DNA of 64,000 nt from Oscillospiraceae bacterium (lineage in GTDB: Bacteria; Bacillota; Clostridia; Oscillospirales; Acutalibacteraceae), in the NCBI GenBank assembly GCA_009777055.1, contig WRMQ01000001.1, forward strand, positions 11,141 to 75,140, read 5' to 3'. Within the stretch, counting starts at the first letter, position 1. Each line of letters begins with the position of its first letter. The position numbers were made by a program, and so were the translations under genes. Below the pieces are notes generated by a model that did no database searches, was not told where the DNA came from, and saw only the letters and a program-made list of their open reading frames with translations. Below, piece after piece: positions 16,498 to 42,674 of this stretch.

Positions 16498-16827
16498 ACC
16501 GTTATCGTACCACAACTGGCGGAATATTGCAAGCGTGTTTTTGAGGAAGAAAGCAATTTTATGATAAAACCGGCGGCGGCAGGATTTGAGAAGCGCCTGA
16601 CAATATCTGCGTGCAATTCAAGCAATGTATTCCCGCTTATTGTGAATTAAGAAAAATAAAGATATATTTCAGGAAAAAAATGAAAAAACAGCCGGAATTT
16701 CGCTTGACAATGAGCGGATTTTCGTGTTATCGTTCCATAGCTTTAACGCGCAAAACACCAATTCGTAAAAGCCCTGCCAGGCAGGATGTCAAGCAACAAG
16801 CCTTTCAAAGCTTAAGGAGGACGAAAA

Positions 16828-19800
16828 ATGAAACTGCGTAGAAGCATAGCCATGCTGATGGCGGGGCTGGTGGTTTCGCTGCTCATACTGCCGATCGCGG
16901 GGACGCAGGCCCAGGAGCCGGACGCGTCGAGCATTTCCGGCGCGCTGTGGGTGGACGGCAACGGCATGCTGCCCACGGACTGGAACGGCCTGCGCGACGA
17001 GGGCGAGCCCCCGCTGGCCGGGTACAGCGTCGCCCTTTACGCGTTCGACGACCGGGAGGAGCCCATTGACTCCACCGTGACAGACGAGCAGGGCGAATAC
17101 ATATTTGAAGGCGTGGCCTCCGGCAGCTATGTGCTGGGTCTTGTGTCGGGCTTCGCGGGCGGCAACGAATATCTGCTTCCCATGGCCGTCACGCAGGAGA
17201 GTGTCTTCGCCATCGACTGGCAGAGCGAGCCGCTGACCGCCTGGTCGGCGGAAATCGTGATCGCCGGGGACGACGAGGCTGTTACCGGCATGGACGCCGG
17301 CATGCGCCTGCCCATGGGGATTGTGCCCCTGGCGGGTGAATTCGTGGTTTCGGGCGCGGCCTCGGGCGTGTATGACAGCCTGGCCGACGCCATAAGCGCG
17401 GTCAACGCCGGGCCCGCGGGCACTTATACCGTTACAGTGGGCAAGAACGAGACCATGGCGGCCGGGCCGCTGGTCATCGACGCGGGCCGGAACGTGACGC
17501 TGCAGTCCTCCGGCGGGCCCTGGACCGTTATGTACGCGGGCTCGGGCAAGCACATCAAGGTGGAGGGGCAGCTGACGCTGAAGAACCTCACGCTGGATGG
17601 CGCGAACAACGCCGGCGGCATAGAGGTTTCATACGGCGGCGCGCAGCTGACCATGGAGGCCGGCGCTGTCATCACGCACTGCAGAGTTGGCGTCAACTGT
17701 TACGGCAACTTCGTTATGAACGACGGCCTGATCACCGAAAACGTTGGCTTCAACGGCTTGGGTGTAAGCATAAACAACGGGGCATCCTTCACCATGTATG
17801 ACGGCGAGATTTCACGCAACGTCAGCAATGACGCCGGCAACGGCGGCGGCGTGTATAACAACTACGGCATGTTCACCATGCATGGCGGAAGGATTATTGA
17901 GAACCAGAACGAATTCGGCGGCGGCGTGTATTCCGCTTTAAGTGGAAGCGTAGGCTTTATCATGCATGGCGGCGAAATTTCCGACAATGTAGCCTTTTCG
18001 TCGGGCGGCGGCGTGAGAATTGGTCTCGGCGGGTTTGAGATGCACGGCGGCGAGATTTCCAGAAACCAGACTGGCGGCGGGATGTATGATAGCACAGGTG
18101 GCGGTATATACTTTAGCTCTATTTCTTCATTCACCATGACCGACGGCGAGATTACCGGCAACAATGCGATTGGTGGCTATGGCGGCGGCTTTGCTGTCAA
18201 CGGCTCCTGCGCGGCCACCCTGTCAGGCGGGGCGATTTATGGCAACGAGGCGACAGCCGGCGGCGGCATTCGATTTTCCGGCAGTTACCCGCTCAACCTG
18301 GATGGCGTTGAGATCTACGGCAATAAGGCCGAGCAGAGCGGCGGCGGCATACTCAACAACAGCTCATCCCCATCTATCATGAGCGCCGGCCGGATTTACG
18401 ACAATGAGGCCGTCCGGGGCGGCGGGCTGCTCAACGGCATGTTCAGCTCATTCACCATGAACGGCGGCGAAATTTCCGAAAACAGGGCGCAGGGAACGGT
18501 CGTCATGTATGGAACTGTTGAATTAGCCGCGGGCGGCGGGGTGTATAACGAACAAAGAGGCTCGTTCACCATGAACGGCGGCGAGATTACCCGCAACGAG
18601 AGCGGCGGCGACGGCGGCGGCGTGTACAATAAAGCGACCTTTGATTTGTACAGCGGCGGCAAGATTACCGATAACACGGCCGCGGGCAGCGGCGGCGGCG
18701 TCTACGCCGGCTACGATGATGATTTCTCTACCAGTAGCACCTTTACGATGCATGGCGGCGAGATTTCCGGAAACATCGCCGGCAGCGACGGCGGCGGCGT
18801 GTACGCGGAGCGCTACAATTCCAGCTCCTTCGGCTATTTCTTTATGGACGGCGGGCTTATCACCGGCAATACAGCCGGGGGTGACGGCGGCGCGATTTTC
18901 TCGGGGGACTACGACTACGGCGACCCCTCTGACCCGCAGAGATACTCGAATATCGGCGTCGCACCCTCCGCTGTGGTCAGCGGAAACACGGCCCAAAGGG
19001 GCTTCCTGCCGCCCATCAACGCGGTGGACTTCACCAACCGAAGCACCAACCCCTTCGACGGCGACCTGATGACGAACCACGAAATCAACTATCGCATCCC
19101 CTCGATAAAGATCACTTATAAGGCCAACGGCGGCGGCGGCCTGGATGTCATACAGGACACGGGCGTTTTGATCACCGACGCGCCCGCGGTCGGGCTGACG
19201 ATCAAAACACAGGCGGAAACCGGCTTTACCGCCCCCATGGGCAGCGGCGCGGCCTTTTTGGGCTGGAACACGCAGTCAAACGGCCTGGGCACGCATTATG
19301 ACGAGGGTCAGACCCCCGTGAGCCTCAACAGCAGCATTATCCTGTATGCCCAGTGGGATTTTGCCTATCGCTATGTGGTCACGAAGGACAGCGACGGCTC
19401 ACCCGCCGGCAGCTACCACTGGCTGCAGGACGCCGTGGACGCCTGCGGCACTGACGGGGCCTATACCATCACCCTGACAGGCGAGAACGACGACGATATG
19501 ACCGACAGGTACAATAGTGCCGGCTCGCCCGGGGTTCCGGTGTTCGTCGGCACGCCCACCAGCGGCAATTCCGTGTATGTGGCCATTCCTTCGGGCAAAA
19601 GCGTCACGCTCACCTCAGACGAATACGGACCCTATTACATCAGGCAGCAGTGCATGAATATGCGGCACTTTGTGGTGGAAGGCGATTTGACGCTGGCGAA
19701 TATTGAGCTGGCGGGGGTCGGGCAATATAGCATGCCGCTTGGCGGCGTGGACATCGCGGCGAACGCCTCGCTGACCATGGAGGCGGGCTCCGCCATCCGC

Positions 19801-22800
19801 GACTGCAACGGCGTCGTCTCAATGTCCTCCTCCTCCTCCTTTTATGGGGGATATGGCGGCGGCGTGTTTGTGGAAAGCGGCGGCGCCTTCACGATGAACG
19901 GCGGCGAGATCAAGAACTGTATGGCCCAGGCCGATGGCGGCGGTGTGTTCCTGAAGCCCAACGCCATTGGCGCGATGACCGGCGGCGTCATCCGCGATAC
20001 GAGGACTTACGGCAGCGGCGGCGGTATATATCTGTCGTACCAAAGCGTTTTCGTGATGGATGGCGGCGAAATCAACGATACCCACGCCTACGGCGGCAGC
20101 GGCGGCGGCGTGAACAGCCAGGAAGGCTCCTTCAGCATGAACGGCGGCCTGATTTCCGAAAGCTATGCCTACGGCGGGCCCGGCGGCGGCGTGTATGTCT
20201 ACAACACAGATTTCGTGATGACCGGCGGCACAATTACCGACAACTGCTCCTATGGAGGGCCCGGCGGCGGCGTGAGCATGACAAATGGCGACTTCAGCAT
20301 GAGCGGCGGCGAGGTTTCCAACAACATTACCTACAACGGCGGCGGCGGCGTGTATCTGTATGAGGGCGATTTCGCCATAAGCGGCAGCGCGAAAATTTCC
20401 GATAACTATACCACCGATGACGGCGGCGGCGTGTTTGTATCGTACGGCGACGCGGACATCAGCGGAAACGCCGTCATCAGCGGCAACACTGCGGAAGCGG
20501 AATATGGCCATTACGGCGGCGGCGGTGTGTATCTGTTTGAAGGCGACCTCAGCATGAGCGGCGGCACCGTCAGCGGCAACACCGTGGGACAGGGCTTCAG
20601 AGGCGGCGGCGGCATATTGGTGCGCAACAGCTGGATCGTCAGAAGCAGTGTCACCATGACCGGCGGCACGATCAGCGGCAATACCGTAGGTGAAAACGCC
20701 TGGGGCGGCGGCGGCATATACGTCGAAAACAGCGATTTTGTGATGAGCGGCGGCTCCATCACCGGCAACAGCGCCTCCGAAGCCTGGGGCGAAGGCGGCG
20801 GCGTGCTGCTGGATGAGGGCTCCTTCCTGATGCAGGGCGACGCGGATATCTCCGGCAACGATGCGGCCTGCGGCGGCGGCGGGCTGTACGCCTGCAACAC
20901 CATCATTGATATGCAGGGCGGCACGATCTCCGGCAACAGCGAGGGCGGTGTTGACGAATGGGGCAATGGCACCAGCTGGGGCGGCGGCGGCGTGATGCTC
21001 GACGGAGCCGTGATGACCATGTCCGGCGGCTCCATCACCGGCAACAGCACCCAGGCCGACGGCGGCGGCGTATATGCAGCTCACAACTACGGCGGCGAGC
21101 TGATCATGACCGGCGGCTCCATCACCGGCAACTCGGCGCCTGACGGATACGGCGGCGGCATCTATACGGGGGACTATTGGGACAGCTCCTCGAACGCCTA
21201 CGCTAACCCCGTGAACGCGGACGAAATGTACCGAAACATCACAATTGGCCCCGGAGCCACCGTCAGCGGGAACTCGGCCTTCAGCCGCTTCCTGGTGCCG
21301 TCGGGCATTGTGCCCGGCACGGGCCCCCTGGGCTTTGACCTGAACCTGCTGAACAACGACAATATCAACTGGGAGGGCGACGTGGACCCGAGCCGCTACC
21401 TGGTGTATAAGGACGCGGGCTGGGTTTTCATCGGCGATTATTTCTGGCTGGCCGACGCCATGGACCATTGCGGCACAGACGGGCCCTACACCATCGTCGC
21501 CACCCAGAACGACCAGGATCTGTCTGACACCTACGGGGGCGCCGGCGATTATCTGCCCCCCTTCCTTCAGACGCCCGCGCCGCCCACGATTCCGCCCAGC
21601 GGCGTATGGGCGGTGACGGTTCCCTCGAACAAGACCGTTACCTTCACCTCTGACGCGAACGGGACTTATGTCATCACGCAGCGGAAAACCTTTCACTTTA
21701 TTGTGAACGGCGGCCTGACCCTGGACGGCATCGTGCTCAGCGGCGGCTCCGGGACGGCCGGCAGTGTCACCGTGAACACCGGCGCGTCTCTGACCATGGA
21801 GCCCGGCGCGGTCATCCGCGATTGCCTTAACGTATATGGCGGCGGCGTGATGCTGTCAGCGGGCGGCGATTTCGTCATGAACGGCGGCGAAATCAAGAAT
21901 TGTACGGCGGGCTCCTACGGCGGCGGTGTGTATGCAAACGGCGGCACGTTCACGATGTATGCCGGTGTGATCAGCGGCAACTTTTCAAACGGCCTGGGCG
22001 GCGGCGTATACATGGATCATGGCTCTGTGTTCAACATGCATGGCGGTGCGATTACGGGCAATGAGGCGCCCTACTGGCATGGCGGCGGGGTTTCCGTGAA
22101 CGATACTCTCAACCAGGGCACCACCTTCACCATGACGGGCGGCAGCATCGACAACAACTGGGCCTACGGCTATGGCGGCGGTGTATACAACAATAGCGGG
22201 GATTTCAACGCCAGCGACAGCTTTATCGACAATAATATCTCGGCCAGCCATGGCGGCGGTGTGTATAATTACGCCAGCGAAAGCGGCACGATTACCCTGA
22301 CCCGCACCAGCGTCAGCGGCAATGAGATGCTGTATTACGGCCACGGCGGCGGCATATACAACGAAAGCACCGACATGCAAATAACCGACTGCGTCGTCAA
22401 CAACAACATCACGCCATACCAGGAAGGCGGCGGCATATACGCGGTGAACTGCGCCCTGGAAATCACCGACGGCGAAATCAAGGGCAACAGCGCGCAAAAC
22501 CTGAACGGCGGCGGCATATCAGCGATGTATTGCGACTTGGAGATCGCCGGCACCGAAATCAGCGGCAACTCCGCGCCGGTCGAATACGGCAGCGGCAGCG
22601 GCGCCGGCGGCGGCGGCGGCATATACGCGCTGTACTGCGACATTGAGATAAGAAGCGGCAGCACGATCAGCAACAACGCGGCGGGCGACAGAGGCGGCGG
22701 CGTATGCTCAATCTATTCCGACATTGATATCAGCGACAGCTTCATCGACAACAACACGGCGGTCAACAACGGCGGCGGCGTGTTCAACGCCAACGGCTCC

Positions 22801-24054
22801 GTCGGCATGATCGCCATCACCCGCAGCAGCGTCAGCGGCAATGAAGCGGGCGGAGATGGCGGCGGCGTGAACAACAGCTCAAACGAATTCCGCCTGACCG
22901 ACAGCGTCATCAACGGCAACAAGGCGGACAGCAACGGCGGCGGCCTGTACAACAATGTCTGCGATCTGTACCTGAACAATTGCACGATCACCGGCAACAC
23001 GGCGGGCGTTGACGGCGGCGGCCTGTGGGATTACTACAAGGATACCGTGGTCAGCGGAGGCACGATTTCGGGCAACAGGGCGGGCAACCATGGCGGCGGC
23101 GTGGAGCATGCGGCTTATTCCTTCACCCTGCGGGACGGCGCGGCGGTCACCGGCAATACGGCGGCGGCCGACGGCGGCGGCATATACAACCGGGGTCCCC
23201 TGACGATGCTCGACGGCGATGTTTCCGGCAACGAGGCGGGCGGCCACGGCGGCGGCATGTACGTGCGCTATGACGATTTCATCATGACCGGCGGCTCCAT
23301 CACCGGCAACAGCGCGCCCAACGGCGACGGCGGCGGCATCTTCGCCGAGGATTACGACTACAACGACCCGGTGGACGCCAGCCTGGGCTACACCAACCTG
23401 AGCATCAACTATGGCGGCGGCACGGGCCTGGTCAGCGGAAACACCTCCAGACAGAGAACCATGCCCCCGCAGGTGATCAACGGGCCGCTGAAGTTCAACA
23501 AAAACCTGCTGGATAACCACGAGATCAACCACACCAACGGCGCCGAGCCCACCACGCTGACCGTCACGAAAACGGCGGAAGGCCTCTTCGCGGACTTGTT
23601 CCGGGTATTCCCCTTCACGATATACCTCACGGACGGGGACGACCTGCCGCTCAGCGCGGGCAAGGAGCTGCCCTACACCGGCAGCGCCACGGGCACGCTG
23701 GTGCTCGACGGCGACGGCAAGGCGGCGTTCGGGCTTGCCCACGGGCAGAGCATCATCTTCGACCTGGTGCCGCTGGACGGCAAGGTGCGCATTGTGGAGT
23801 TCGACGACCCGAGCTACGCGGAGTCCTTCATTGACAGCGAGGACGGCATAAGCGTTCCGGGCAGCGACACGGGCCTGCTGGAGATGACCGCGGACCGAAG
23901 CTTCGCCTTCCATAACCAGAGCACCATCATCGTCGGCGGCATAGAAGCCGGCAGCCTGGCGGCCCTGTTCCCGCTGGTCCTGATTCTCTTGGCGGGCGCG
24001 GCGGTAATCATGTGGCAGGCGGCGCGGCGGCGCCGCGGGAGGGCCGCGGCATGA
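16828..24054 (+). CDS. Giant (2408 aa) cell-surface beta-helix repeat adhesin, probable pilus tip protein
   Basis: Signal peptide MKLRRSIAMLMAGLVVSLLILPIAGTQA. N-terminal SdrD/CnaB-like domain. Dozens of GGG(V/I)(Y/F)...F(T/S)M.GG.I..N repeats in three modules. One Listeria-Bacteroides-type repeat. C-terminal CnaB-like domain, hydrophobic helix and RRRRG tail. Confidence 0.85.
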   Translation: MKLRRSIAMLMAGLVVSLLILPIAGTQAQEPDASSISGALWVDGNGMLPTDWNGLRDEGEPPLAGYSVALYAFDDREEPIDSTVTDEQGEYIFEGVASGSYVLGLVSGFAGGNEYLLPMAVTQESVFAIDWQSEPLTAWSAEIVIAGDDEAVTGMDAGMRLPMGIVPLAGEFVVSGAASGVYDSLADAISAVNAGPAGTYTVTVGKNETMAAGPLVIDAGRNVTLQSSGGPWTVMYAGSGKHIKVEGQLTLKNLTLDGANNAGGIEVSYGGAQLTMEAGAVITHCRVGVNCYGNFVMNDGLITENVGFNGLGVSINNGASFTMYDGEISRNVSNDAGNGGGVYNNYGMFTMHGGRIIENQNEFGGGVYSALSGSVGFIMHGGEISDNVAFSSGGGVRIGLGGFEMHGGEISRNQTGGGMYDSTGGGIYFSSISSFTMTDGEITGNNAIGGYGGGFAVNGSCAATLSGGAIYGNEATAGGGIRFSGSYPLNLDGVEIYGNKAEQSGGGILNNSSSPSIMSAGRIYDNEAVRGGGLLNGMFSSFTMNGGEISENRAQGTVVMYGTVELAAGGGVYNEQRGSFTMNGGEITRNESGGDGGGVYNKATFDLYSGGKITDNTAAGSGGGVYAGYDDDFSTSSTFTMHGGEISGNIAGSDGGGVYAERYNSSSFGYFFMDGGLITGNTAGGDGGAIFSGDYDYGDPSDPQRYSNIGVAPSAVVSGNTAQRGFLPPINAVDFTNRSTNPFDGDLMTNHEINYRIPSIKITYKANGGGGLDVIQDTGVLITDAPAVGLTIKTQAETGFTAPMGSGAAFLGWNTQSNGLGTHYDEGQTPVSLNSSIILYAQWDFAYRYVVTKDSDGSPAGSYHWLQDAVDACGTDGAYTITLTGENDDDMTDRYNSAGSPGVPVFVGTPTSGNSVYVAIPSGKSVTLTSDEYGPYYIRQQCMNMRHFVVEGDLTLANIELAGVGQYSMPLGGVDIAANASLTMEAGSAIRDCNGVVSMSSSSSFYGGYGGGVFVESGGAFTMNGGEIKNCMAQADGGGVFLKPNAIGAMTGGVIRDTRTYGSGGGIYLSYQSVFVMDGGEINDTHAYGGSGGGVNSQEGSFSMNGGLISESYAYGGPGGGVYVYNTDFVMTGGTITDNCSYGGPGGGVSMTNGDFSMSGGEVSNNITYNGGGGVYLYEGDFAISGSAKISDNYTTDDGGGVFVSYGDADISGNAVISGNTAEAEYGHYGGGGVYLFEGDLSMSGGTVSGNTVGQGFRGGGGILVRNSWIVRSSVTMTGGTISGNTVGENAWGGGGIYVENSDFVMSGGSITGNSASEAWGEGGGVLLDEGSFLMQGDADISGNDAACGGGGLYACNTIIDMQGGTISGNSEGGVDEWGNGTSWGGGGVMLDGAVMTMSGGSITGNSTQADGGGVYAAHNYGGELIMTGGSITGNSAPDGYGGGIYTGDYWDSSSNAYANPVNADEMYRNITIGPGATVSGNSAFSRFLVPSGIVPGTGPLGFDLNLLNNDNINWEGDVDPSRYLVYKDAGWVFIGDYFWLADAMDHCGTDGPYTIVATQNDQDLSDTYGGAGDYLPPFLQTPAPPTIPPSGVWAVTVPSNKTVTFTSDANGTYVITQRKTFHFIVNGGLTLDGIVLSGGSGTAGSVTVNTGASLTMEPGAVIRDCLNVYGGGVMLSAGGDFVMNGGEIKNCTAGSYGGGVYANGGTFTMYAGVISGNFSNGLGGGVYMDHGSVFNMHGGAITGNEAPYWHGGGVSVNDTLNQGTTFTMTGGSIDNNWAYGYGGGVYNNSGDFNASDSFIDNNISASHGGGVYNYASESGTITLTRTSVSGNEMLYYGHGGGIYNESTDMQITDCVVNNNITPYQEGGGIYAVNCALEITDGEIKGNSAQNLNGGGISAMYCDLEIAGTEISGNSAPVEYGSGSGAGGGGGIYALYCDIEIRSGSTISNNAAGDRGGGVCSIYSDIDISDSFIDNNTAVNNGGGVFNANGSVGMIAITRSSVSGNEAGGDGGGVNNSSNEFRLTDSVINGNKADSNGGGLYNNVCDLYLNNCTITGNTAGVDGGGLWDYYKDTVVSGGTISGNRAGNHGGGVEHAAYSFTLRDGAAVTGNTAAADGGGIYNRGPLTMLDGDVSGNEAGGHGGGMYVRYDDFIMTGGSITGNSAPNGDGGGIFAEDYDYNDPVDASLGYTNLSINYGGGTGLVSGNTSRQRTMPPQVINGPLKFNKNLLDNHEINHTNGAEPTTLTVTKTAEGLFADLFRVFPFTIYLTDGDDLPLSAGKELPYTGSATGTLVLDGDGKAAFGLAHGQSIIFDLVPLDGKVRIVEFDDPSYAESFIDSEDGISVPGSDTGLLEMTADRSFAFHNQSTIIVGGIEAGSLAALFPLVLILLAGAAVIMWQAARRRRGRAAA

Positions 24055-24602
24055 CGCGGGAAGACCAGGCGGACCAGGTCCGCGAGCGGCCGGCCGGCGG
24101 CCCGCCCCCCCCAACGCTTTGGCGCGAGCTGAGAACCTTTGCCATCAAAATCGCGGCGATCGCGGGCATCGGGATGCTGCTGCTGACCTTCGTTTACGGG
24201 CTGCACTACAACCGGGAAGCCGGCATGAGCCCCTCGCTCAAGGACGGCGATCTGGTGGTGTATTACCGCCTGGACAAGGACTACCGTGCCGGAGACCTTC
24301 TCCTGCTGGTTTTCCAGGGAGAAAAGCAGCTGCGCCGGGTCATCGCCTGCGCGGGCGACACGGTGGATATTACCAGCGAGGGGCTCGTGATCAACGGCGC
24401 GCTCCAGCAGGAGCGGGAGATCTACCGGAGAACCGAGCGCTACGCGGAGGGCATCGAATTCCCCCTGACCCTGAACGAGGGCGAGGTCTTCGTTCTCGGC
24501 GACGCGCGCGACAATGTCACCGACAGCCGCGTCTATGGCCCGGTAAAAACGGGCGACACCCTGGGAACCGTGATCGCGGCCCTCAGGCGCAGAAATCTGT
24601 AG
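24051..24602 (+). CDS. Signal peptidase I homologue lacking the Ser/Lys dyad (SipA/LepA-like pilus accessory protein)
   Basis: S26 fold boxes are present (GDLVVY, GDARDNVTDSRVYG). However, box B reads AGMSPSL (Gly where the catalytic Ser sits) and box D reads RRVIACAGD (Arg where the Lys sits). ATGA overlap with the adhesin stop. Confidence 0.75.
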   Translation: MTREDQADQVRERPAGGPPPPTLWRELRTFAIKIAAIAGIGMLLLTFVYGLHYNREAGMSPSLKDGDLVVYYRLDKDYRAGDLLLLVFQGEKQLRRVIACAGDTVDITSEGLVINGALQQEREIYRRTERYAEGIEFPLTLNEGEVFVLGDARDNVTDSRVYGPVKTGDTLGTVIAALRRRNL

Positions 24603-24668
24603 CGATATAGACATGCTCCCCCAAAAGATCATGTTTGTATAAATTCAAAAAAACAGGAGAGACAAGAA

Positions 24669-25973
24669 ATGAAAAAGACCAAAATCCTGCTGGCAATGCT
24701 GCTGGCGCTCACCCTGGCCCTCAGCGCGGGCCTGATGACCGCGTTCGCGGACGAGCCCGACCCCAACATCCCCTTTGGCACACTCAGCGATCCCGCCCAG
24801 GCGGCCATCACCAAGATCCTGCAAATGCCGGAAGGCACGAACCTCCCCACCGCGAACTTCCTGTTCAACGTGGCCTCCCAGAGCGCGCCCACCGGTGTGG
24901 CGTCGCAGGACATTCCCATGCCCGGCACCGCCGGCGTGGTCACCATCAGCTTTGACCCCTCCAGCCTCACAAACGTTACCGTGAACACGGCAGGCGGCGT
25001 TACCCGGTACATCAAAGAGTCGGCGAGCCTGTTCGCGGGCAAATCCTGGCCGGTCCCCGGCGAGTACGTGTACACCATCACTGAGGACGACAGCGCCAGC
25101 TACACCGCCGGCACGAACGAGACAGTGATCTATTCCGGAGCCTCCTACCAGCTCACCGTGTATGTCAAGCAGGACAGCGACAGCGGCACCAATTATATCT
25201 TTGCCATCGGCATGATCAGCATCACAGAGGATGACGGCGAACCGGGCGACCCGGCGCTTAAGAAAGACCCGACCCCCGGCAGCATCAGCCTGACCAATGA
25301 TTACAGCCAGATGATCTTCACCAACAGCTTCATGAAGGTGAATGGCGACAGCGAAACCGACGTGAAAAACCTGAGCATCGAAAAGCTGACCGACGGCGAC
25401 TTCAGAGACGTGACCGAATACTTCAACTTCACCCTGACCATCACCCTTCCCCCCATGGCTGTCGCCGCGGGCCTGGGCGCAGCCTCCTACGAAGCGGTCG
25501 TTCTGGACGACCAGGATGACAACGTGACGGTGGAGCTCAACGGCGCCGCCGACGACGCCGACGGCTTCATCACGGTTGTGCCCGGCACCCCGCTGAACTT
25601 CAGCCTCAAGCATGGCGAGCGCCTGGTGATCCCCGAGCTGCCCATCGGCACCACCTATGCCATTTCGGAAATCAGCCCCACCAACTACATCCCCACCCTG
25701 ACCGTCCTTTCCGGCGGCACTGCGGTTAGCGGCCTTCCGGCCGGCGCGCTGAGCTCGACCCTTACCGCCTCCGGGCTGATCGTGGCCGACACGGCGCCGA
25801 CGACCAACGGCGCGAACAGCGCGCTGTTCACCAACCTGCGCAATGATATCAACATCACGGGCCTGAACATCAACGACCTGCCCTTTATCGGCATGATCGC
25901 CCTGGCGCTGGCCGCCGGCCTGTTCCTCCTGGCGGCGAAAGCCCGCAAGGCGAAGAAGGGCTACAGCTGCTAA
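24669..25973 (+). CDS. Spy0128/FctA-type pilin (probable backbone subunit)
   Basis: Signal peptide. Pilin isopeptide-domain hallmark PGEYVYTITEDD. C-terminal hydrophobic helix plus KARKAKK tail, preceded by DLPFIG. Confidence 0.7.
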   Translation: MKKTKILLAMLLALTLALSAGLMTAFADEPDPNIPFGTLSDPAQAAITKILQMPEGTNLPTANFLFNVASQSAPTGVASQDIPMPGTAGVVTISFDPSSLTNVTVNTAGGVTRYIKESASLFAGKSWPVPGEYVYTITEDDSASYTAGTNETVIYSGASYQLTVYVKQDSDSGTNYIFAIGMISITEDDGEPGDPALKKDPTPGSISLTNDYSQMIFTNSFMKVNGDSETDVKNLSIEKLTDGDFRDVTEYFNFTLTITLPPMAVAAGLGAASYEAVVLDDQDDNVTVELNGAADDADGFITVVPGTPLNFSLKHGERLVIPELPIGTTYAISEISPTNYIPTLTVLSGGTAVSGLPAGALSSTLTASGLIVADTAPTTNGANSALFTNLRNDINITGLNINDLPFIGMIALALAAGLFLLAAKARKAKKGYSC

Positions 25974-26031
25974 GCAAAAGCGAACACTGACTGAATGAGC
26001 GCGCAGGCGCTCTGAAAGGAGAGACCCGCAC

Positions 26032-27036
26032 ATGGGCGTAGCGGCCAAAACCGGCATAAAAGCGATACGGCTGGCAAACGGAGCCCTTGATACGGCAGTC
26101 CTGGCCATCGTACTGCTGCTGATCGCCATTGGCTGCTACGCCATGTGGGACTCGAAGCAATTATTTGACGCGGCAACCGCTGAGAAGTTCGCGGTTTATA
26201 AGCCCGGCGCCGAGGAGGACAGCCCCTCCTTCGAGCAGCTGCGGGCCATGAACCCGGAGGTGTTCGCCTGGCTTACGGTATACGGCACGAACATCGATTA
26301 CCCGGTTGTGCACAGCCCGGACGAAAGCCAGAAGTATGTCAGCGCCGACGCTCTGGGACGATATTCGCTTTCCGGCTCGATATTCCTCGGAAGCGAGCAC
26401 AGCCCCGGCTTCGCGGACTTCAGCAGCATCCTCTATGGCCACCACATGGAAAAGCAGGCCATGTTCGGAGAAATCGGACTCTTTGTCGAAAAAAGCTATT
26501 TCGACGCGCGGCAATACGGCATGCTGTACTTCGGCGGGCGGGCGCACGGGCTGGAATTTTTCGCCTTCCTCCACACCGACGCCTACGACGGCACGATATA
26601 CAGAGCTGGCATCAATGGGCGGGAAGAGCGCGGCGCGTACCTGGATTTGCTGCTTGCCCGGTCGATTCATACCCGCGGCGTCCCGGTGACGGCGGACGAC
26701 AAAATCGTTCTGCTTTCCACCTGCTCGGGCGCATCGACCAACGGACGGGATATTCTCGTCGGAAAAATCACGGATGAGCCCCGCGAAGACCCGTTTGAAA
26801 CGGAAAAACCGGACAACGCGATGGCGCTGGCGGTAGACAGGCTGCCCGGATTGTGGGCGCGGAGCCCGCGATGGGTTAAAATCAGCCTGATTTGCCTGCC
26901 GCTGTTTATCCTGCTGTTGCTGCTGTCCTTGATCATACGAAACACCAGGCAAAAAAATAATAATAAGCAAAAAAACGAGCAAAAACGCACCAATCGAAAA
27001 CAAACCAAAAAGTTACCCGACAAGGGGGGCACATGA
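26032..27036 (+). CDS. Class B sortase
   Basis: NIDYPVVH, ILYGHHM, VLLSTCSG. N-terminal TM helix plus an extra C-terminal TM and basic tail. Confidence 0.8.
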   Translation: MGVAAKTGIKAIRLANGALDTAVLAIVLLLIAIGCYAMWDSKQLFDAATAEKFAVYKPGAEEDSPSFEQLRAMNPEVFAWLTVYGTNIDYPVVHSPDESQKYVSADALGRYSLSGSIFLGSEHSPGFADFSSILYGHHMEKQAMFGEIGLFVEKSYFDARQYGMLYFGGRAHGLEFFAFLHTDAYDGTIYRAGINGREERGAYLDLLLARSIHTRGVPVTADDKIVLLSTCSGASTNGRDILVGKITDEPREDPFETEKPDNAMALAVDRLPGLWARSPRWVKISLICLPLFILLLLLSLIIRNTRQKNNNKQKNEQKRTNRKQTKKLPDKGGT

Positions 27037-28250
27037 AAATGAAATTGCAAAAGCGAACCGGAAAGATTTTGCTGAGCGGCCTGATTCTATCCTGCCTGCT
27101 TTGCCTGCTGATGCCCATGGCGTCCGCCGCGCCGGCGGCGGTTACGCTGACGGTGAATCAGGTGTTTGCCAAGCCGGCCGCGGCCGGGCCGCTGGCGGAA
27201 ACTTTTCAATACCGGCTGGAGCCCATACAGGCCACCAACCCCATGGTCATGGGGACGGTTGCCGGTGTCTATGCCTTTTCCATTACGGGAAACTCTGAAT
27301 TTGACATAGGTCCGATCGCGTTCCCGTCGCCGGGCAAATACAGCTATAGGCTGCTCCATGCCACGGAACCGGCGGCAGGCTATGTCTATGACGAGACGGT
27401 CTATACGCTGGAGGTTCTCGTGAAAGCCGACGGGACATACAGCGTTGTGGCCTCCAAAGAGGGGGGCGACAAGCAGGAGGCTCTGGAGTACAGGCATTCC
27501 TACCAGACCAATGCCAGCGACCCTCTCGTGATGGTGGACCCGCCTGTGGTGAAGACCGTGATCGGTATCCCCCGAAGCCCCGCGCTCTTCAGCTTTGAGC
27601 TGGTGGCGGGCAGCCCCGGCAACCCCATGCCGGCCGGCTCGGTCGACGGCGTGAAAACCGTGTGGATCACGGGCTCCGGCAGCGCGGAGTTCGGCGTGTG
27701 GGCCTATACGCAGCCGGGTGTGTATTATTACACGGTCTCGGAGGTCAATACCGGCGCGAGAGACTATAACTATGACACAACCGTATACACTATCACCGAC
27801 ACGGTGAGTGCCGTGGACGGGGAGCTTGAGGTATCGCGGGTGGTGACCAACGGCGCGAACCGGCAGGTGACGTCGCTGTCGTTCATCAACATCTACAAAG
27901 GCTCCGCGCAGATCCCGGCGATCCCCATTCCGGTGCCGGTCCCGCTGCCGCTGCCGGTGCCTGTTCCGCTGCCGGTTCCGGGGGCGACAGGGCCGGGGGA
28001 TCCGGGAGATCCAGGCGCTCCGGGCGTTCCGGGCGTTCCGGGCGCAGCCGGGCCCAATGATCCCGTGCCGGCGGGCACAGGCGGAACTGGTTCGAATAAC
28101 GCCAAGCTGCCCGGCAAGGGACCTAAAACCGGCGACGAGTCTCAGACCCTGCTGTTCACCTTCCTTTTCTGCGCCGGAACCGCGGCGGCGCTGTTCAGCG
28201 CGGGCTACCTGGTGATACCCGGGAGGCGCAGGGCGAATAAGAGAGGATAG
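27033..28250 (+). CDS. Spy0128-type pilin with proline-rich stalk (probable basal/minor subunit)
   Basis: Two domains with PGKYSYRLLHATE and PGVYYYTVSEVN. Stalk IPAIPIPVPVPLPLPVPVPLPVPG...GDPGDPGAPGVPGVPG. Sorting signal GPKTGD, then hydrophobic helix and RRRANKRG. Confidence 0.75.
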   Translation: MKMKLQKRTGKILLSGLILSCLLCLLMPMASAAPAAVTLTVNQVFAKPAAAGPLAETFQYRLEPIQATNPMVMGTVAGVYAFSITGNSEFDIGPIAFPSPGKYSYRLLHATEPAAGYVYDETVYTLEVLVKADGTYSVVASKEGGDKQEALEYRHSYQTNASDPLVMVDPPVVKTVIGIPRSPALFSFELVAGSPGNPMPAGSVDGVKTVWITGSGSAEFGVWAYTQPGVYYYTVSEVNTGARDYNYDTTVYTITDTVSAVDGELEVSRVVTNGANRQVTSLSFINIYKGSAQIPAIPIPVPVPLPLPVPVPLPVPGATGPGDPGDPGAPGVPGVPGAAGPNDPVPAGTGGTGSNNAKLPGKGPKTGDESQTLLFTFLFCAGTAAALFSAGYLVIPGRRRANKRG

Positions 28251-28252
28251 AT

Positions 28253-29002
28253 ATGCGCAAAAAAAAGGGCCGAAGAATCGCCGCGTGTCTGGTTTTGACG
28301 CTGTCTGTGCCTGTCATGGCGCTGGCCGGCTGGCGTCTGGCGGGCATATGGCAATCCAACCGGGAGGGCAGGGACAGCTATGCGCGCCTGGCCGATTCGG
28401 TGCGCCGCGAATTGCCCGCGCGGGATACGGACGCGGGCGGCAGGGTCATTGATTTCGCGGCGCTGCAAGCGGTCAGCCCGGACGCCGTGGCCTGGCTGGA
28501 ATGCCCGGGCACCGTCATCGATTATCCGGTGATGCGCGCGGCGGATTACAACCACTACCTGCACCGCCTGCCGGATGGCAGCTATAACGCCAACGGCTCC
28601 CTGTTCATTGATTTCAACTGCGCGCCCGATTTCACGGACCAGCTGACGGTTGTCTACGGACACAACATGAAATCGGGGCAGATGTTCGGCTCGCTTACCA
28701 AATACAAGGACCAGGCATATTACCGGGAGCACCCGTATTTTCTGCTCTACACCGCGGGCGGCGGCGCGGCACAGCGCATTGACCTGCTGTACGGCTGCGT
28801 GATCGACGCGGCGCAGTGGCGGGAGCGGGCCTTCTCCTACCAGGTGAATCTGGAGGCGCTGCTGGCCTATGCCGCCTACAACACCACGTTCGACAGCCAG
28901 ACGCAATACAGCCCGGAAGACAGGGTTGTGGCTTTGTCCACCTGCTCCTATGAGTTTGAAGGCGCCCGCTATGTGGTGCTCGGTGTGCTGCGAAGCCAAT
29001 GA
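28253..29002 (+). CDS. Class B sortase
   Basis: VIDYPVMR, VVYGHNMKSGQMFG, VALSTCSY. N-terminal TM helix. Confidence 0.8.
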   Translation: MRKKKGRRIAACLVLTLSVPVMALAGWRLAGIWQSNREGRDSYARLADSVRRELPARDTDAGGRVIDFAALQAVSPDAVAWLECPGTVIDYPVMRAADYNHYLHRLPDGSYNANGSLFIDFNCAPDFTDQLTVVYGHNMKSGQMFGSLTKYKDQAYYREHPYFLLYTAGGGAAQRIDLLYGCVIDAAQWRERAFSYQVNLEALLAYAAYNTTFDSQTQYSPEDRVVALSTCSYEFEGARYVVLGVLRSQ

Positions 29003-29112: not shown

Positions 29113-31743
29113 CTATGCCGTAAACGCTACCTTGAAGCAGTGCGACCTGAGCTTTCCCTGGAAAAGCTTGAAGCGTACATCGCCGCCGGTGAGGGTTTTG
29201 TCGCCAACCGTGATGGAGATCACATAACCCGCGCTGTCGGTGACGGGCTTGCCAAACCATTTTGAGGGGTCGCTGCCCAGGGTAATCTTCTTTTCGGGAT
29301 ATTTCTTGTTGTATTCATTCACAAGGGCGCGCAGTTCTTCCACGGTGAACACGGGGCTCGATACGTCTACCTTCTCGATGCTGGCGCGCCCGCCGGCGAG
29401 GTAGGGCGCGGGGTCGCCGCCCCAGACGTACTTCGGGCTGGTGGTTTGTCCGGCGCAGGAGGCGAAATAGAGCGTTTCGGCCACGCCGCTGTTGTAGGCG
29501 AGGTATTCGCCCAGCACGGCATCCACCAGCGCGTAGGCCTTGGCGTGCAGCTTTTTCGCGTAGTCAGTGTTCCAGCTGCTGGTGCTGGCCATGTGCTGGT
29601 TGTTCGTCGTGGTCTTGAAGCTGTTGCGCTTGGCGATGGTGTAGGCGCAGATCACCTGTGCCTTAAAGGCCTCGTCGGCCACGTTGTTGGGATAGCCGAT
29701 TTCGCCGCAGCTTACCCGCGCGAGGTATTCCTTCAGTGTGTATGTAGCGCCATCGTGGGTGACCAGCGCGGGCGGTATGGCGTCGCGTTTAACGGCGATG
29801 CCCGTGGCGTTGTAGTAGTGCAGCAGGATTTGCTTGTAGGTCCAGCCCCTTTGGGTGGCGTAGGCCTTCGCGCCCTCCTGGCTGAGCCCGACGCCGTGGC
29901 CGTAGCCCTGCACGGTGAAGGTAAATATCTGTTTTACGGCGGGAGACAATGTCGTTGCCGGCGCCTTGGTGGTCGTTGGTGCCTTGGATGTCGTTGGGGC
30001 TTTGGATGTCGTTGGCGCCTTGGTTGTTGTGGCGCGCGCCGTCGTCGTCGCCATGGCGTCGCTGATGGCCTCCGCCGCCGACTGGGCAAGCCTTGCCGCC
30101 AGCGCGAGCAGCTGCCGCAGGTAATCCATCACAACGGAAACCACTTGCCGTGTCAGGCGAGGCAGATCAACCAGGGAGTCGTCCTTGAGACTGGCCAGGG
30201 CCGAAAGCGCGCCGCGCAGCAGGCTGTCGCTTTGCCCCGAAGCCAGCGCGGGAGCCTCCAAGCGCGCGGCCGCGGAGGCCGGCTCAGCCACAGGCTGTGA
30301 GATCTGATGTCCGGAGGTGCCGGCCGGGTCTGTTTCCGTTGCCTCAAGCAGCAGGGTGCCGTCTGCGTTATCCGCCAGGATGGCCGCGGTTTTCGTGATC
30401 GTGAGATCCTCCGTTTCGGCGGCGCTGCCGCGCTGGGCCTGGAAGGTGAGCACCAGGCAGGCGAGCACGGAGATCAGCGCCAGGCAGGATGTGGCGATGG
30501 CGCGGCGCCTGGGCCGGTCCTTTTCGTCCTCCTCCGCGGGCAGGGGCAGGGGAATCAGCTCCGCGCCGCGCGGCGGCAGCCCTTGCGTATCCAGGTAATC
30601 GCAGATGAGGCTAAACAGTGCCTCGGCGATGCCGGCCAGGCAGTCCCGCGGCAATTCGCCCGGCTCCAGCTCCAGCTGGCGGACCTGGGCATAGTCCTTG
30701 TCGTGGCACACGGCCAGATGCAGCAGCCGCCCTCCGCCCCGCGTTTTCATGGGCGCGGAGATCACGCCGCAGATATAGCTGTTTGTGCGCGCGCGCAGCT
30801 GCCGCGCGGCTTTTACGATCTTGTCCGATGTGACGGGCTGCAGGCTTTGCTCCAAAACGACAGGGAGGATCGTTTCCGGGATGCTGATTTCCCGCAGCAG
30901 GTCCTGGATGCCGTTTAATTCATGGGGCAGCGCCAGAGCGCAGATATCTCCTCTTTCCGCCAGGAGGGCGATTCGTTTCCGCAGCCGCAGCGTGGCCTGG
31001 GCGTTGTCCTCCCTGCGGCGCGTGAAGCTCTTGATTTCAGCCGTTGTGGGCGCGGCGGGCTCCGGCAGGGGATCGTTCCGCTTTGCCTTGGCCTGAATGG
31101 CTTCCCCGGCCTTTTCTGAAGCGAAGTATTCTGCCCTGGCGTCCGGGAAGGGGACAATTTCCGCCAGGGGCTCAATGCTTTCCGGGCCGATGGGCTCCAG
31201 GCTCAGAGGGGGGACGCTGATCTTTTCGAGCATGCGCTCAATGTTGTTTGACTGGATTTCCGCCTGGGCCTCCGGGGACGCGCCCTCCAAGGCCGCGAGA
31301 TAGGTCAGAACATCCATGCGGATGCCGGCCAGCAGCTGGAGCTCCAGGGGAGTGAACAGCAAGCACTGCGGGCCTTGCCGCAGGGCAAAGCCGTGATACG
31401 CGTTTTCTGTTGTGGGAAAGATTTCGGCCCCCTCGGGAAAGCAGCTGTCCTCTGGCTGTGCGGCGGCTGTGCCGGAAAACTTGACCAGCGGAATCTGCAG
31501 CGCGGCGAAGAGGCTGCGCTTCAGTGCGTGATATTGCCCGGGCTCCGCGGCGATGACGATCAGGTCGCAGAATTCCAGCTGCGGCTTCAGCAGACGCTTG
31601 AGCTGCTCCGGGCTTTTGGCCGTGAATGGTTCCGGCGTGCCGGGAAAGGCACGGTTGATCAGAGCGAGGAGCTCCTGTCGCTCCGGTGACGCCTGGGGAT
31701 CGGCGCACAGGGCGAAGATTCTTGCGTTTTTCATGATTAACAT
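29113..31743 (-). CDS. Membrane protein with C-terminal SpoIID/LytB domain and a large N-terminal cytoplasmic region
   Basis: SpoIID signature FTVQGYGHGVGLSQEGAKAYA. Single TM helix (IATSCLALISVLACLVLTF) around residue 440. APTTSKAPTTSKAPTTTKAP linker. Confidence 0.7.
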   Translation of the reverse strand: MLIMKNARIFALCADPQASPERQELLALINRAFPGTPEPFTAKSPEQLKRLLKPQLEFCDLIVIAAEPGQYHALKRSLFAALQIPLVKFSGTAAAQPEDSCFPEGAEIFPTTENAYHGFALRQGPQCLLFTPLELQLLAGIRMDVLTYLAALEGASPEAQAEIQSNNIERMLEKISVPPLSLEPIGPESIEPLAEIVPFPDARAEYFASEKAGEAIQAKAKRNDPLPEPAAPTTAEIKSFTRRREDNAQATLRLRKRIALLAERGDICALALPHELNGIQDLLREISIPETILPVVLEQSLQPVTSDKIVKAARQLRARTNSYICGVISAPMKTRGGGRLLHLAVCHDKDYAQVRQLELEPGELPRDCLAGIAEALFSLICDYLDTQGLPPRGAELIPLPLPAEEDEKDRPRRRAIATSCLALISVLACLVLTFQAQRGSAAETEDLTITKTAAILADNADGTLLLEATETDPAGTSGHQISQPVAEPASAAARLEAPALASGQSDSLLRGALSALASLKDDSLVDLPRLTRQVVSVVMDYLRQLLALAARLAQSAAEAISDAMATTTARATTTKAPTTSKAPTTSKAPTTTKAPATTLSPAVKQIFTFTVQGYGHGVGLSQEGAKAYATQRGWTYKQILLHYYNATGIAVKRDAIPPALVTHDGATYTLKEYLARVSCGEIGYPNNVADEAFKAQVICAYTIAKRNSFKTTTNNQHMASTSSWNTDYAKKLHAKAYALVDAVLGEYLAYNSGVAETLYFASCAGQTTSPKYVWGGDPAPYLAGGRASIEKVDVSSPVFTVEELRALVNEYNKKYPEKKITLGSDPSKWFGKPVTDSAGYVISITVGDKTLTGGDVRFKLFQGKLRSHCFKVAFTA

Positions 31744-41445: not shown

Positions 41446-41480
41446 ATTGAGCATTGAGCATTGAGAATTGAGAATTGAAA
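41446..41480 (+). repeat. Heptanucleotide array (ATTGAGN x5) abutting the lepB SD
   Basis: attgagc attgagc attgaga attgaga attgaaa, followed by GAAAGGAGG, 8 nt and TTG. Confidence 0.85.
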
Positions 41481-41497
41481 GAAAGGAGGTTGGGCGC

Positions 41498-42094
41498 TTG
41501 CGGGTTACGAAGGAGCATTGGGTTCCTCTGCGCACGCAAAACGACAGAATTCCTCCGCCGCGGCCCGCGCTGCGCATCGCGTTTGAGGCCGCGTCGTCGC
41601 TTATGGGGGCGCTGCTTCTCGTCTTCGTGCTGTTCAGCTTCCTGTGCCGCCCCATCCGCGTGGATGGAAGCTCCATGCTGCCCAGCCTCACCGACGGCGA
41701 CTGGCTGATTATGACCGCGTTTTGCGTGGAGCCGGAGCGCGGGCGCATCGCCGTGATATCCGAAGACACGGGTCTGCACAAGCCTCTGGTCAAGCGGGTG
41801 ATCGCCCTGCCCGGCGACACGGTGGACATTGATTTTACGCGGGGCGTGGTCTCCGTGAACGGCGTGGAGCTCGACGAGCCCTACACCGCCGGGCCCACGA
41901 CTCGTTCCATGGATGTGAAATTCCCTCTCACGGTGGCGGAGGGCGCCTGCTTCGTGCTGGGCGACAACCGCAACGCCTCCGCCGACAGCCGCAGCTCCAG
42001 CGTCGGCATGGTGGACCTGCGCTGCGTGATCGGGCAGGCGCTGGTCCATATCCCCGTGCAAACTATCAAAGAAAGACTCGGCCTTGCCGGCTGA
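41498..42094 (+). CDS. lepB: Signal peptidase I
   Basis: Catalytic boxes are intact: DGSSMLPSL, VKRVIALPGD, GDNRNASADSR. TTG start after AAAGGAGG. Confidence 0.85.
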   Translation: MRVTKEHWVPLRTQNDRIPPPRPALRIAFEAASSLMGALLLVFVLFSFLCRPIRVDGSSMLPSLTDGDWLIMTAFCVEPERGRIAVISEDTGLHKPLVKRVIALPGDTVDIDFTRGVVSVNGVELDEPYTAGPTTRSMDVKFPLTVAEGACFVLGDNRNASADSRSSSVGMVDLRCVIGQALVHIPVQTIKERLGLAG

Positions 42095-42107
42095 GAAGGT
42101 GGCTCCC

Positions 42108-42674
42108 ATGGCAAACGAAACCGCGGAAGAACGCGGCAAGCCAAAATTGCTGGGTTCCGTTTATGAATTGGCCGAAATCCTGGTCAGCGCCGTGCTGGCC
42201 ATCGCGGTGATGTTTTTGTTCCTGTTCCGTTTCGCGGGCGTGGTGGGCACCTCCATGACGCCCACGCTGCAGCACAAGGACTGGCTGGCCGTGGGCGCTT
42301 TCGCGCGCAGCCCCAAGCGGGGGGATATCATCATCATCGCGCAGCCCAACGACCACAACGAGCCTTTGGTTAAGCGCGTTATCGCCACCGGGGGCCAGGT
42401 CGTGGATATCGCGGAGGGCCGGGTGCTGGTGGACGGCGCGGTCATCGAGGAGCCCTACCTTCCTTCGGGTGTCGTCACCAGCAAGGCGCCGCCGTCCCAG
42501 GCCTCGGTGGAATTCCCCGTCACCGTGCCGGAGGGCTTCGTTTTCGTGATGGGCGATAACCGCGGCGGCTCCTCCGACAGCCGCTACAAAGAAGTAGGTT
42601 TTATCCAGGAAGATTATATTCTTGGAAAGGTCCATCTGCGGCTAGTGCCCTTCGGACAGTTTATAGTAAAATAG
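42108..42674 (+). CDS. lepB: Signal peptidase I (tandem paralogue)
   Basis: VGTSMTPTL, VKRVIATGGQ, GDNRGGSSDSR. Confidence 0.85.
   Translation: MANETAEERGKPKLLGSVYELAEILVSAVLAIAVMFLFLFRFAGVVGTSMTPTLQHKDWLAVGAFARSPKRGDIIIIAQPNDHNEPLVKRVIATGGQVVDIAEGRVLVDGAVIEEPYLPSGVVTSKAPPSQASVEFPVTVPEGFVFVMGDNRGGSSDSRYKEVGFIQEDYILGKVHLRLVPFGQFIVK

Follow-up and report, generated by a model that had tools for sequence, protein, structure and literature searches.

A probable SipA/LepA-type pseudo-signal-peptidase encoded among the pilus genes of an Oscillospiraceae bacterium

Introduction

SipA/LepA of Streptococcus pyogenes (Spy0127; PDB 4n31, 4k8w) is the assembly factor of the FCT-2/3/4 pili. It has the S26 signal peptidase fold and an N-terminal membrane anchor, and both residues of the catalytic dyad are gone. 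In the crystal structure, Asp48 and Gly85 of SipA occupy the spatial positions of Ser90 and Lys145 of the Escherichia coli enzyme, and the protein, lacking Ser and Lys, has no peptidase activity, yet it retains the peptide cleft and is indispensable for polymerization: loss of SipA in S. pyogenes abolishes polymerization of the backbone pilin (PMC4049620). SipA co-occurs specifically with class B pilus sortases and is essential not only in S. pyogenes but also for assembly of the pneumococcal PI-2 pilus and in PI-2b of group B Streptococcus (GBS); its molecular role is unknown (PMC7900414). In the Clostridia, the VR-10B necrotic-enteritis locus of Clostridium perfringens (cnaA, fimA, fimB, a gene described as a "signal peptidase," and the gene for a class B sortase) makes an experimentally shown pilus (PMC8088525). 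Here, we analyze a related gene at positions 24051 to 24602 of a 64,000-nucleotide stretch of DNA, referred to throughout as the window, from an Oscillospiraceae bacterium (GenBank assembly GCA_009777055.1, contig WRMQ01000001.1, positions 11,141 to 75,140, forward strand). An earlier note, made from the sequence of the window, had drawn attention to this gene as a signal peptidase I paralog with both catalytic residues replaced.

The sequence comparisons reported below make it probable that the gene encodes a membrane-anchored, catalytically inert S26-fold protein of the SipA/LepA type that is co-transcribed with pilus genes. By analogy with the streptococcal systems, the protein is most likely a helper of the pilus-building sortase.

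Results

The SipA-like gene and its catalytic positions

The following features of the gene were located in the window:

24051..24602, + strand: SipA/LepA-like pseudo-signal-peptidase, 183 amino acids (aa), from the open reading frame (ORF), S26 homology, and alignments
24138..24194, + strand: predicted N-terminal membrane anchor, residues 30-48 (hydropathy 2.26 over 19 residues; AlphaFold helix 23-56)
24222..24224, + strand: codon of Gly58, which aligns with the catalytic Ser (box B, AGMSPSL) and with SipA Asp48
24333..24335, + strand: codon of Arg95, which aligns with the catalytic Lys (box D, RRVIA) and with SipA Gly85
24498..24530, + strand: box E, GDARDNVTDSR, with the structural D, R, and DSR kept and Val156 at the Ser278-equivalent position (family alignment)

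The ATG at 24051 overlaps the stop codon of an upstream 2408-aa gene (ATGA) and is preceded, approximately 8 nt 5′, by a GGGAGGG ribosome-binding site (RBS); the ORF ends at its own stop codon at 24602. The same 183-aa product is found in an independent gene call on the same contig. The protein matches Pfam Peptidase_S26 (PF10502; E value of 4e-20) and the NCBIfam equivalog TIGR02227 "signal peptidase I" (E value of 3.6e-22; 79 bits against a cutoff of 47), and it has 1067 database homologs, of which the closest named ones are proteins from Oscillospiraceae metagenome-assembled genomes (MAGs). The ORF is a real S26-fold gene whose match lies far beyond chance. The predicted topology is a single N-terminal anchor followed by an extracytoplasmic domain.

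A six-frame motif scan placed AGMSPSL at 24219 and RRVIA at 24333, both in this ORF. Alignments with S26 peptidases and SipA bear out the claim of the earlier note that both catalytic residues are replaced. Gly58 and Arg95 line up with the Ser and Lys of LepB in MAFFT, HMMER, and profile alignments, and in the HMMER alignment to the crystallized S. pyogenes SipA, they fall on Asp48 and Gly85, respectively. The boxes that the note considered fold-defining, GDLVVY and GDARDNVTDSR, are both present. The alignments also revealed a third active-site loss, absent from the note: Val156 occupies the box-E column of Ser278 in the E. coli enzyme, the Ser that hydrogen-bonds the Lys in active type I signal peptidases. 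Compared with the active enzymes (LepB/SipS/SpsB; MEROPS S26A), the window protein has in common the fold, the anchor, boxes C to E with the DSR kept, and the box-B Met and Pro, but it has neither the Ser nucleophile nor the Lys base nor the Ser278-equivalent Ser. These enzymes are also more distant from it than SipA is, and it is encoded in a pilus operon rather than in an rplS-lepB-ylqF setting.

The note itself had raised the possibility that a nearby Ser and Lys take over the catalytic roles. The candidate for such a displaced dyad, Ser60 or Ser62 of MSPSL with Lys92, was rejected because these columns are not conserved in the family (A/S/D/N/Q at position 60, A/S/N/M at position 62, and R/T/L/K at position 92) and because the analogous Lys83 of SipA is dispensable (PMC4049620); no nearby Ser or Lys is conserved. 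Judging from the alignments, the SipA-like protein is most likely catalytically inert.

Relationship to SipA and to true signal peptidases

Two signal peptidase I genes lie elsewhere in the window:

41468..42094, + strand: signal peptidase I copy 1 (SSMLPSL, KRVIA, GDNRNASADSR; TIGR02227 9e-32), exact start uncertain
42084..42674, + strand: signal peptidase I copy 2 (TSMTPTL, KRVIA, GDNRGGSSDSR; TIGR02227 6e-39)

As the note had described, the motif scan finds that both LepB copies keep the box-B Ser (SSMLPSL and TSMTPTL) and the box-D Lys (KRVIA). They form a tandem pair between rplS and ylqF, and their ORFs overlap by 11 nt (42084-42094), the true starts being uncertain. Their strong signal peptidase I scores and the rplS/ylqF setting mark them as housekeeping enzymes.

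The SipA-like protein was compared with SipA and with true signal peptidases in several ways. In a phmmer search of PDB sequences, SipA (1.7e-17) and LepA (1e-16) were far ahead of the best real signal peptidase (6e-06). In BLASTP, SipA reached 76.6 bits against the query and 35 to 47 bits against signal peptidases. A hidden Markov model (HMM) of the query family scored SipA at 98 bits and the genome's own LepB proteins at 61 to 69 bits. By these sequence measures, SipA and the window protein are reciprocally more similar to each other than either is to true signal peptidases. Foldseek matches of its structural model were SipA, SpsB, and LepB, the best being SipA 4n31 (E value of 6e-08), with a root mean square deviation (RMSD) of ∼6 Å. 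The likeness to streptococcal SipA/LepA proposed in the note thus stands, in that the nearest solved relatives by both sequence and fold are S. pyogenes SipA/LepA and the gene is adjoined by those for FctA/PitB-type pilins and class B sortases. The protein combines S26 homology, closeness to SipA, loss of the dyad, a predicted anchor, and a pilus-operon setting.

The window protein and S. pyogenes SipA are 35% identical over 136 aa, and both contain MSPxL and LYYR motifs. They differ at Lys83 of SipA, which is Gln here, and at the Gly272-equivalent position, which is kept here (Gly150) and is Asn140 in SipA. The host here is a high-GC Clostridia bacterium (Oscillospiraceae-like).

Variation at the catalytic positions across the family

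The base position is Arg in all 119 close homologs (56 to 79% identity), an invariance that sets this clade apart from S. pyogenes SipA, while the nucleophile position varies among them (58 Gly, 35 Ser, 22 Asp, 2 Ala, 1 Asn, and 1 Thr). For a wider view, 150 representatives at 50% identity, forming the top of the family search, were aligned to the family profile by hmmalign. Lys was found at the base position in none of the 150 (77 Arg, 21 Gly, 15 Leu, 12 Ala, 7 Ser, and others), and the nucleophile position was occupied by Ser (51), Gly (28), Asp (28), Ala (13), Thr (9), or Asn (9), among others. Structural residues were retained in nearly all representatives: Met at +1 in 148/150 and Pro at +3 in 140/150 relative to the nucleophile position, Arg at +1 relative to the base position in 149/150, and, in box E, Asp in 149/150, Arg in 144/150, and DSR in 145 to 147/150. 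Among 60 homologs at 57 to 75% identity, 26 columns are invariant. An HMMER scan of 1.84 billion representatives returned 121 clusters (50% identity) below 1e-30 and 1218 below 1e-10.

A variable nucleophile position, the lack of Lys in 150 representatives, and strong conservation elsewhere form the pattern that would be expected under selection for a noncatalytic function. Because Lys occurs in 0/150 and the nucleophile position varies freely, the loss of the catalytic Lys would, on this alignment, be old and family-wide. Where the SipA-like homologs carry a source name, it is always "signal peptidase I," an annotation that is probably wrong for the whole clade and overstates its function.

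These data bear on whether the protein could still be a peptidase that uses unconventional residues (another Ser or Thr with Arg95 or another base) to process the pilins or the adhesin, an idea that Young 2014 considered for SipA (PMC4049620). The S26 fold and the cleft-forming motifs are kept, Arg95 is invariant in close relatives, and Ser or Thr is present at the nucleophile position in many relatives, including 51 of the 63 sortase fusions described below. We nevertheless regard such an activity as very improbable. The position is Gly in the window protein, and G, S, D, A, N, and T interchange there among homologs of at least 56% identity; no neighboring Ser or Lys is conserved, and the Ser278-equivalent residue is Val. 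SipA has no peptidase activity, and mutation of candidate residues was without effect (PMC4049620). Moreover, the signal-peptide sites of the pilins are of the ordinary AxA type, and the window contains two intact LepB genes.

The surrounding pilus operon

The SipA-like gene is the second of six genes that resemble a pilus operon. The other features are as follows:

16704..16733, + strand: promoter-like site TTGACA-18-TATCGT with TG, 5′ of the adhesin gene (consensus scan, weak)
16828..24054, + strand: giant surface protein, putative tip adhesin, 2408 aa (DUF7601 1.9e-09, Flg_new, CarboxypepD_reg)
24669..25973, + strand: putative backbone pilin, 434 aa (FctA and DUF7601; PitB/T-antigen relatives)
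26032..27036, + strand: class B sortase SrtB1, putative pilus polymerase, 334 aa (TIGR03064 1.3e-43)
27033..28250, + strand: putative basal pilin, 405 aa (FctA 1.5e-19; strep_pil_rpt 8e-19; srtB_target weak)
28253..29002, + strand: second class B sortase SrtB2, putative basal-pilin anchoring sortase, 249 aa (TIGR03064 1.5e-40)

The genes are separated by −4, 66, 58, −4, and 2 nt, and each has an RBS; from this spacing and the RBSs, we infer that the six genes (16828-29002) are co-transcribed. A scan for promoters and terminators found 7 promoter-like sites, not clearly above the 4.6 expected from shuffles, and no convincing internal terminator. The earlier note had called the SipA-like gene island-encoded. 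This part of its description finds no compositional support, as the GC content of the locus (0.58 to 0.63) falls within the range elsewhere in the window (0.52 to 0.65), and a foreign island was rejected for want of any GC or skew anomaly over 16.8 to 29.0 kb. The locus is a pilus gene cluster that is not demonstrably foreign.

The putative adhesin carries a signal peptide and GGGxY-type β-helix repeats; toward its C terminus, it has a DUF7601 domain of pilin type and a tail that is first hydrophobic and then basic. Homologous adhesins are encoded in three loci of related genomes (L001, L002, and L004). At the C terminus (23930-24054), the sorting motif is IIVGG in the window, PITG in L001, and SVTG in L002.

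The backbone pilin has a signal peptide ending in AFA and the sorting signal INITG, after which come NINDLPF, a hydrophobic stretch, and KARKAKK. Among solved proteins, it is most similar to PitB of PI-2 (7f7y, 4s3l; 1e-08) and the S. pyogenes T-antigens, and the sorting signals of related backbone pilins are ITPTG, VTPTG, and FPVTG where the window has INITG. A shared element follows the cleavage site in the backbone pilins of seven loci (the window at 25870-25973, L001, L002, L003, L005, L006, and L008). Here, x(I/P)TG is followed after 4 or 5 residues by (D/N)(D/N)LP(F/Y), with which the membrane segment begins; the adhesins and basal pilins do not have this element. The (D/N)(D/N)LP(F/Y) sequence may be recognized by the sortase or by the pair that the sortase would form with the SipA-like protein. 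A pairing of Arg95 with an acidic residue after the pilin TG was considered and rejected because L005 and L008 have NN yet keep the Arg.

SrtB1 is most similar among solved structures to 4y4q (1.3e-58) and the S. pyogenes pilus sortase Spy0129/3psq (1.7e-32). It scores slightly under the trusted cutoff of TIGR03064 (149 versus 153.75) and has, in addition to an N-terminal transmembrane segment (TM), an unusual C-terminal TM and basic tail. Among solved structures, SrtB2 is related to generic SrtB enzymes, for example, Lmo2181 of Listeria and SrtB of Bacillus anthracis, and its only ortholog was found in L001. A third class B sortase (31874-32905, − strand, 343 aa) adjoins cinA; of the three sortases, it alone reaches the trusted cutoff of TIGR03064 (154.7 versus 153.75), and it is possibly the organism's housekeeping sortase. 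In the basal pilin, two FctA-type isopeptide domains are accompanied by a long Pro-rich linker ahead of a GPKTGD signal of sortase-B type; its solved relatives include FctB 3klq and 8k6t (at 4e-06), and it would be the subunit that anchors the fiber.

Two groups of genes on the opposite strand flank the operon. Directly 5′ and divergent lie a gene for a SCIFF-type radical SAM peptide maturase (TIGR03974, 680 bits) and then an arylsulfatase-like gene (13508-16515). Convergent with the operon end is a gene (29113-31743) for an 876-aa protein with a C-terminal SpoIID/LytB domain and a linker rich in Thr, Ala, Pro, and Lys (KAPTTS repeats).

The whole locus mirrors the architecture of streptococcal FCT-2/3 and PI-2 (PMC7900414, PMC4049620). 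As in S. pyogenes, sipA lies between the genes for the tip adhesin and the backbone pilin, 5′ of a class B sortase gene, and the full order (adhesin, sipA, backbone pilin, class B sortase, and basal pilin) is the same. The basal-pilin signal here is of sortase-B type, and the locus encodes a second class B sortase of its own; S. pyogenes uses SrtA instead. The genes of pneumococcal PI-2 are arranged as pitA-sipA-pitB-srtG1-srtG2. The order in the window is alike (adhesin, sipA, backbone pilin, sortase, an intervening pilin, and sortase), with two sortases in both, and the window backbone pilin is closest to PitB, as SrtB1 is to the SrtB-family structure 4y4q. It differs from PI-2 by an extra FctB-like basal pilin between the sortases, a far larger adhesin with β-helix repeats, and a host of another lineage. 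The C. perfringens VR-10B locus, which we liken by description, is likewise a pilus operon of the Clostridia, in which three pilins are joined by a signal-peptidase-like gene and one for a class B sortase, and it too has a sortase-B basal-pilin signal and a second SrtB nearby.

Conserved linkage and natural fusion to class B sortases

The SipA-like gene is linked to the same type of sortase in other genomes. Of 17 related genome loci, which come from diverse Bacillota, 15 have a class B sortase gene downstream of it that is better matched by SrtB1 than by SrtB2, and in 9 of those 15, a pilin match lies between the two. Among the taxa are Breznakia, Catenisphaera, Eubacterium, Lachnospiraceae, Enterococcus asini, and Ruminococcus. 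Both exceptions, from Lutispora, have SM...KR and resemble true signal peptidases. Two loci have features of their own. In Catenisphaera adipataccumulans (L006, 10001-10474), the nucleophile position is Met and the base position is Lys, the sole Lys among the pilus-linked loci. A Candidatus Nanosyncoccaceae MAG (L013, JAZUMV010000005.1), which carries a Saccharibacteria-related label, has a SipA-like gene with Asn and Tyr at the dyad positions and, directly after it, a class B sortase gene; this occurrence may reflect horizontal transfer or a binning artifact.

Unusually long members of the family proved to include natural fusions to a sortase (6 representatives). A dedicated search, in which proteins of 450 aa or more were counted, recovered at least 63 full-length fusions, all metagenomic proteins (P0140, P0195, P0202, P0247, P0248, P0255, and P0268-P0325; loci L019 and L021-L024). 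Each is composed of a TM, an SrtB1-type class B sortase, a TM, a basic linker, a TM, and a SipA-like domain, which is the topology of the window SrtB1 (C-terminal TM and basic tail) joined to that of the SipA-like protein (N-terminal cytoplasmic stretch and TM). The sortase half is always closest to SrtB1 (mean of 197 bits versus 87 for SrtB2 and 76 for the third sortase). Its STC motif is intact in 62/63 fusions and its YGH motif in all, while the S26 base position is Lys in 0/63 and Arg in 59/63. The genes for several fusions come immediately after those for an adhesin and a pilin, making an operon of three genes, and one arrangement of this kind is present in separate JGI and ENA records; some others occur as tandem pairs with no pilin nearby. 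No full-length fusion carries a source name. Word searches of the literature turned up no account of sortase-SipA fusions, which is not proof of absence.

Such "Rosetta-stone" fusions argue that the SipA-like module works beside the polymerizing sortase, as a physical partner of the SrtB1-type enzyme. They also bear on a noncatalytic role in some other step, such as export or folding of the adhesin, incorporation of the tip, or anchoring to the wall by SrtB2. A role of this kind would fit the translational coupling to the adhesin gene (the ATGA overlap), the atypical sorting motif of the adhesin, and the unsettled molecular role of SipA in the streptococci themselves (PMC7900414). We consider it unlikely, however, because the neighbors that persist from locus to locus are those for the backbone pilin and a sortase of the SrtB1 type and not those for the adhesin or SrtB2, because all 63 fusions are of the SrtB1 type, and because loss of SipA in S. 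pyogenes abolishes backbone pilin polymerization (PMC4049620).

Least probable of the explanations is that the gene is a decaying, functionless lepB duplicate carried along in the operon. The loss of three active-site residues (Ser, Lys, and the Ser278 equivalent) is what such a relic could show, but the gene has an intact frame, an RBS, and translational coupling, and the family has more than 1000 homologs, with the 26 invariant columns in 60 sequences noted above. Its linkage to pilus sortases is kept across orders of Bacillota, fusion to an intact sortase has occurred repeatedly, and the streptococcal homologs are essential for polymerization (PMC4049620).

Discussion

The proposed role as a helper of the pilus-building sortase can be cast as a sequence of steps. 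Pilin precursors would be exported, and the two intact LepB enzymes would cut their signal peptides at AxA-type sites; the pilin signal-peptide sites are ordinary (AFA, TQA, and ASA), so removal of the signal peptides is presumably left to the LepB copies. The ectodomain of the SipA-like protein would sit beside SrtB1 on the outer face of the membrane, where the retained signal-peptidase cleft may hold a pilin segment or present it to SrtB1. The likeliest such segment would be the C-terminal sorting signal close to the membrane, in which (D/N)(D/N)LP(F/Y) comes after xITG. Its presentation would let SrtB1 form Thr-Lys isopeptide links and so polymerize the shaft, until the xPKTG basal pilin ends polymerization and is attached to the wall by SrtB2. 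The presentation step is suggested by streptococcal genetics and by the natural sortase::SipA fusions. In the SipA crystal, the cleft-bound peptide runs antiparallel to the orientation of a signal peptide (PMC4049620), an orientation that would suit a C-terminal anchor.

Several observations weigh against this reading or its details. The AlphaFold2 model of the SipA-like protein, built from a 60-sequence alignment, is of moderate confidence (predicted local distance difference test [pLDDT] score of 76.7), with pLDDT values below 50 in the box-B loop (residues 54-65) and at residues 156-159. The structural check suggested in the earlier note is thus borne out for the S26 fold, with SipA as the best neighbor, and leaves the side-chain positions unconfirmed; because the model is poor in the box-B loop, the residue-level claim rests on the alignment to crystallized SipA. 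The dyad replacements themselves differ from those of SipA (Gly and Arg here, Asp48 and Gly85 there), and the invariant Arg of the close clade, unlike the Gly of SipA, has no assigned role. About one-third of the family keeps Ser at the nucleophile position, where residual chemistry is conceivable. A search of public sequencing runs for expression of the SipA-like gene returned none. In the adhesin motif, Gly replaces the Thr at which sortases usually cleave, so the system may not work exactly like the FCT pili. Finally, in what PMC7900414 relates of Young 2014, pull-downs with recombinant S. pyogenes SipA gave no detectable binding of pilins, sorting-signal peptides, or sortase.

A more specific version of the helper role is possible, although we hold it only tentatively and think it somewhat doubtful: instead of acting as a loose "chaperone," the SipA-like protein may be the noncatalytic subunit of a two-part sortase holoenzyme, with its dead, Arg-headed cleft docking the TG-(D/N)(D/N)LP(F/Y) segment by the SrtB1 active site. 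If this were true, the ∼60 SrtB1::SipA fusions would be the covalent form of a 1:1 complex, and they would offer a tractable single chain for the mechanism of SipA, a question open since 2008.

The window gene is an ordinary, well-behaved member of its family, and the kind of protein it encodes is already known. The wider value of the analysis lies in the scale of the pseudo-peptidase clade, in its naming in databases, and in the sortase fusions, which constitute new evidence on mechanism and an independent, testable argument for contact between SipA and the sortase. The SipA module is not a streptococcal oddity but belongs to a very large family in the Clostridia and Erysipelotrichia-type Bacillota.

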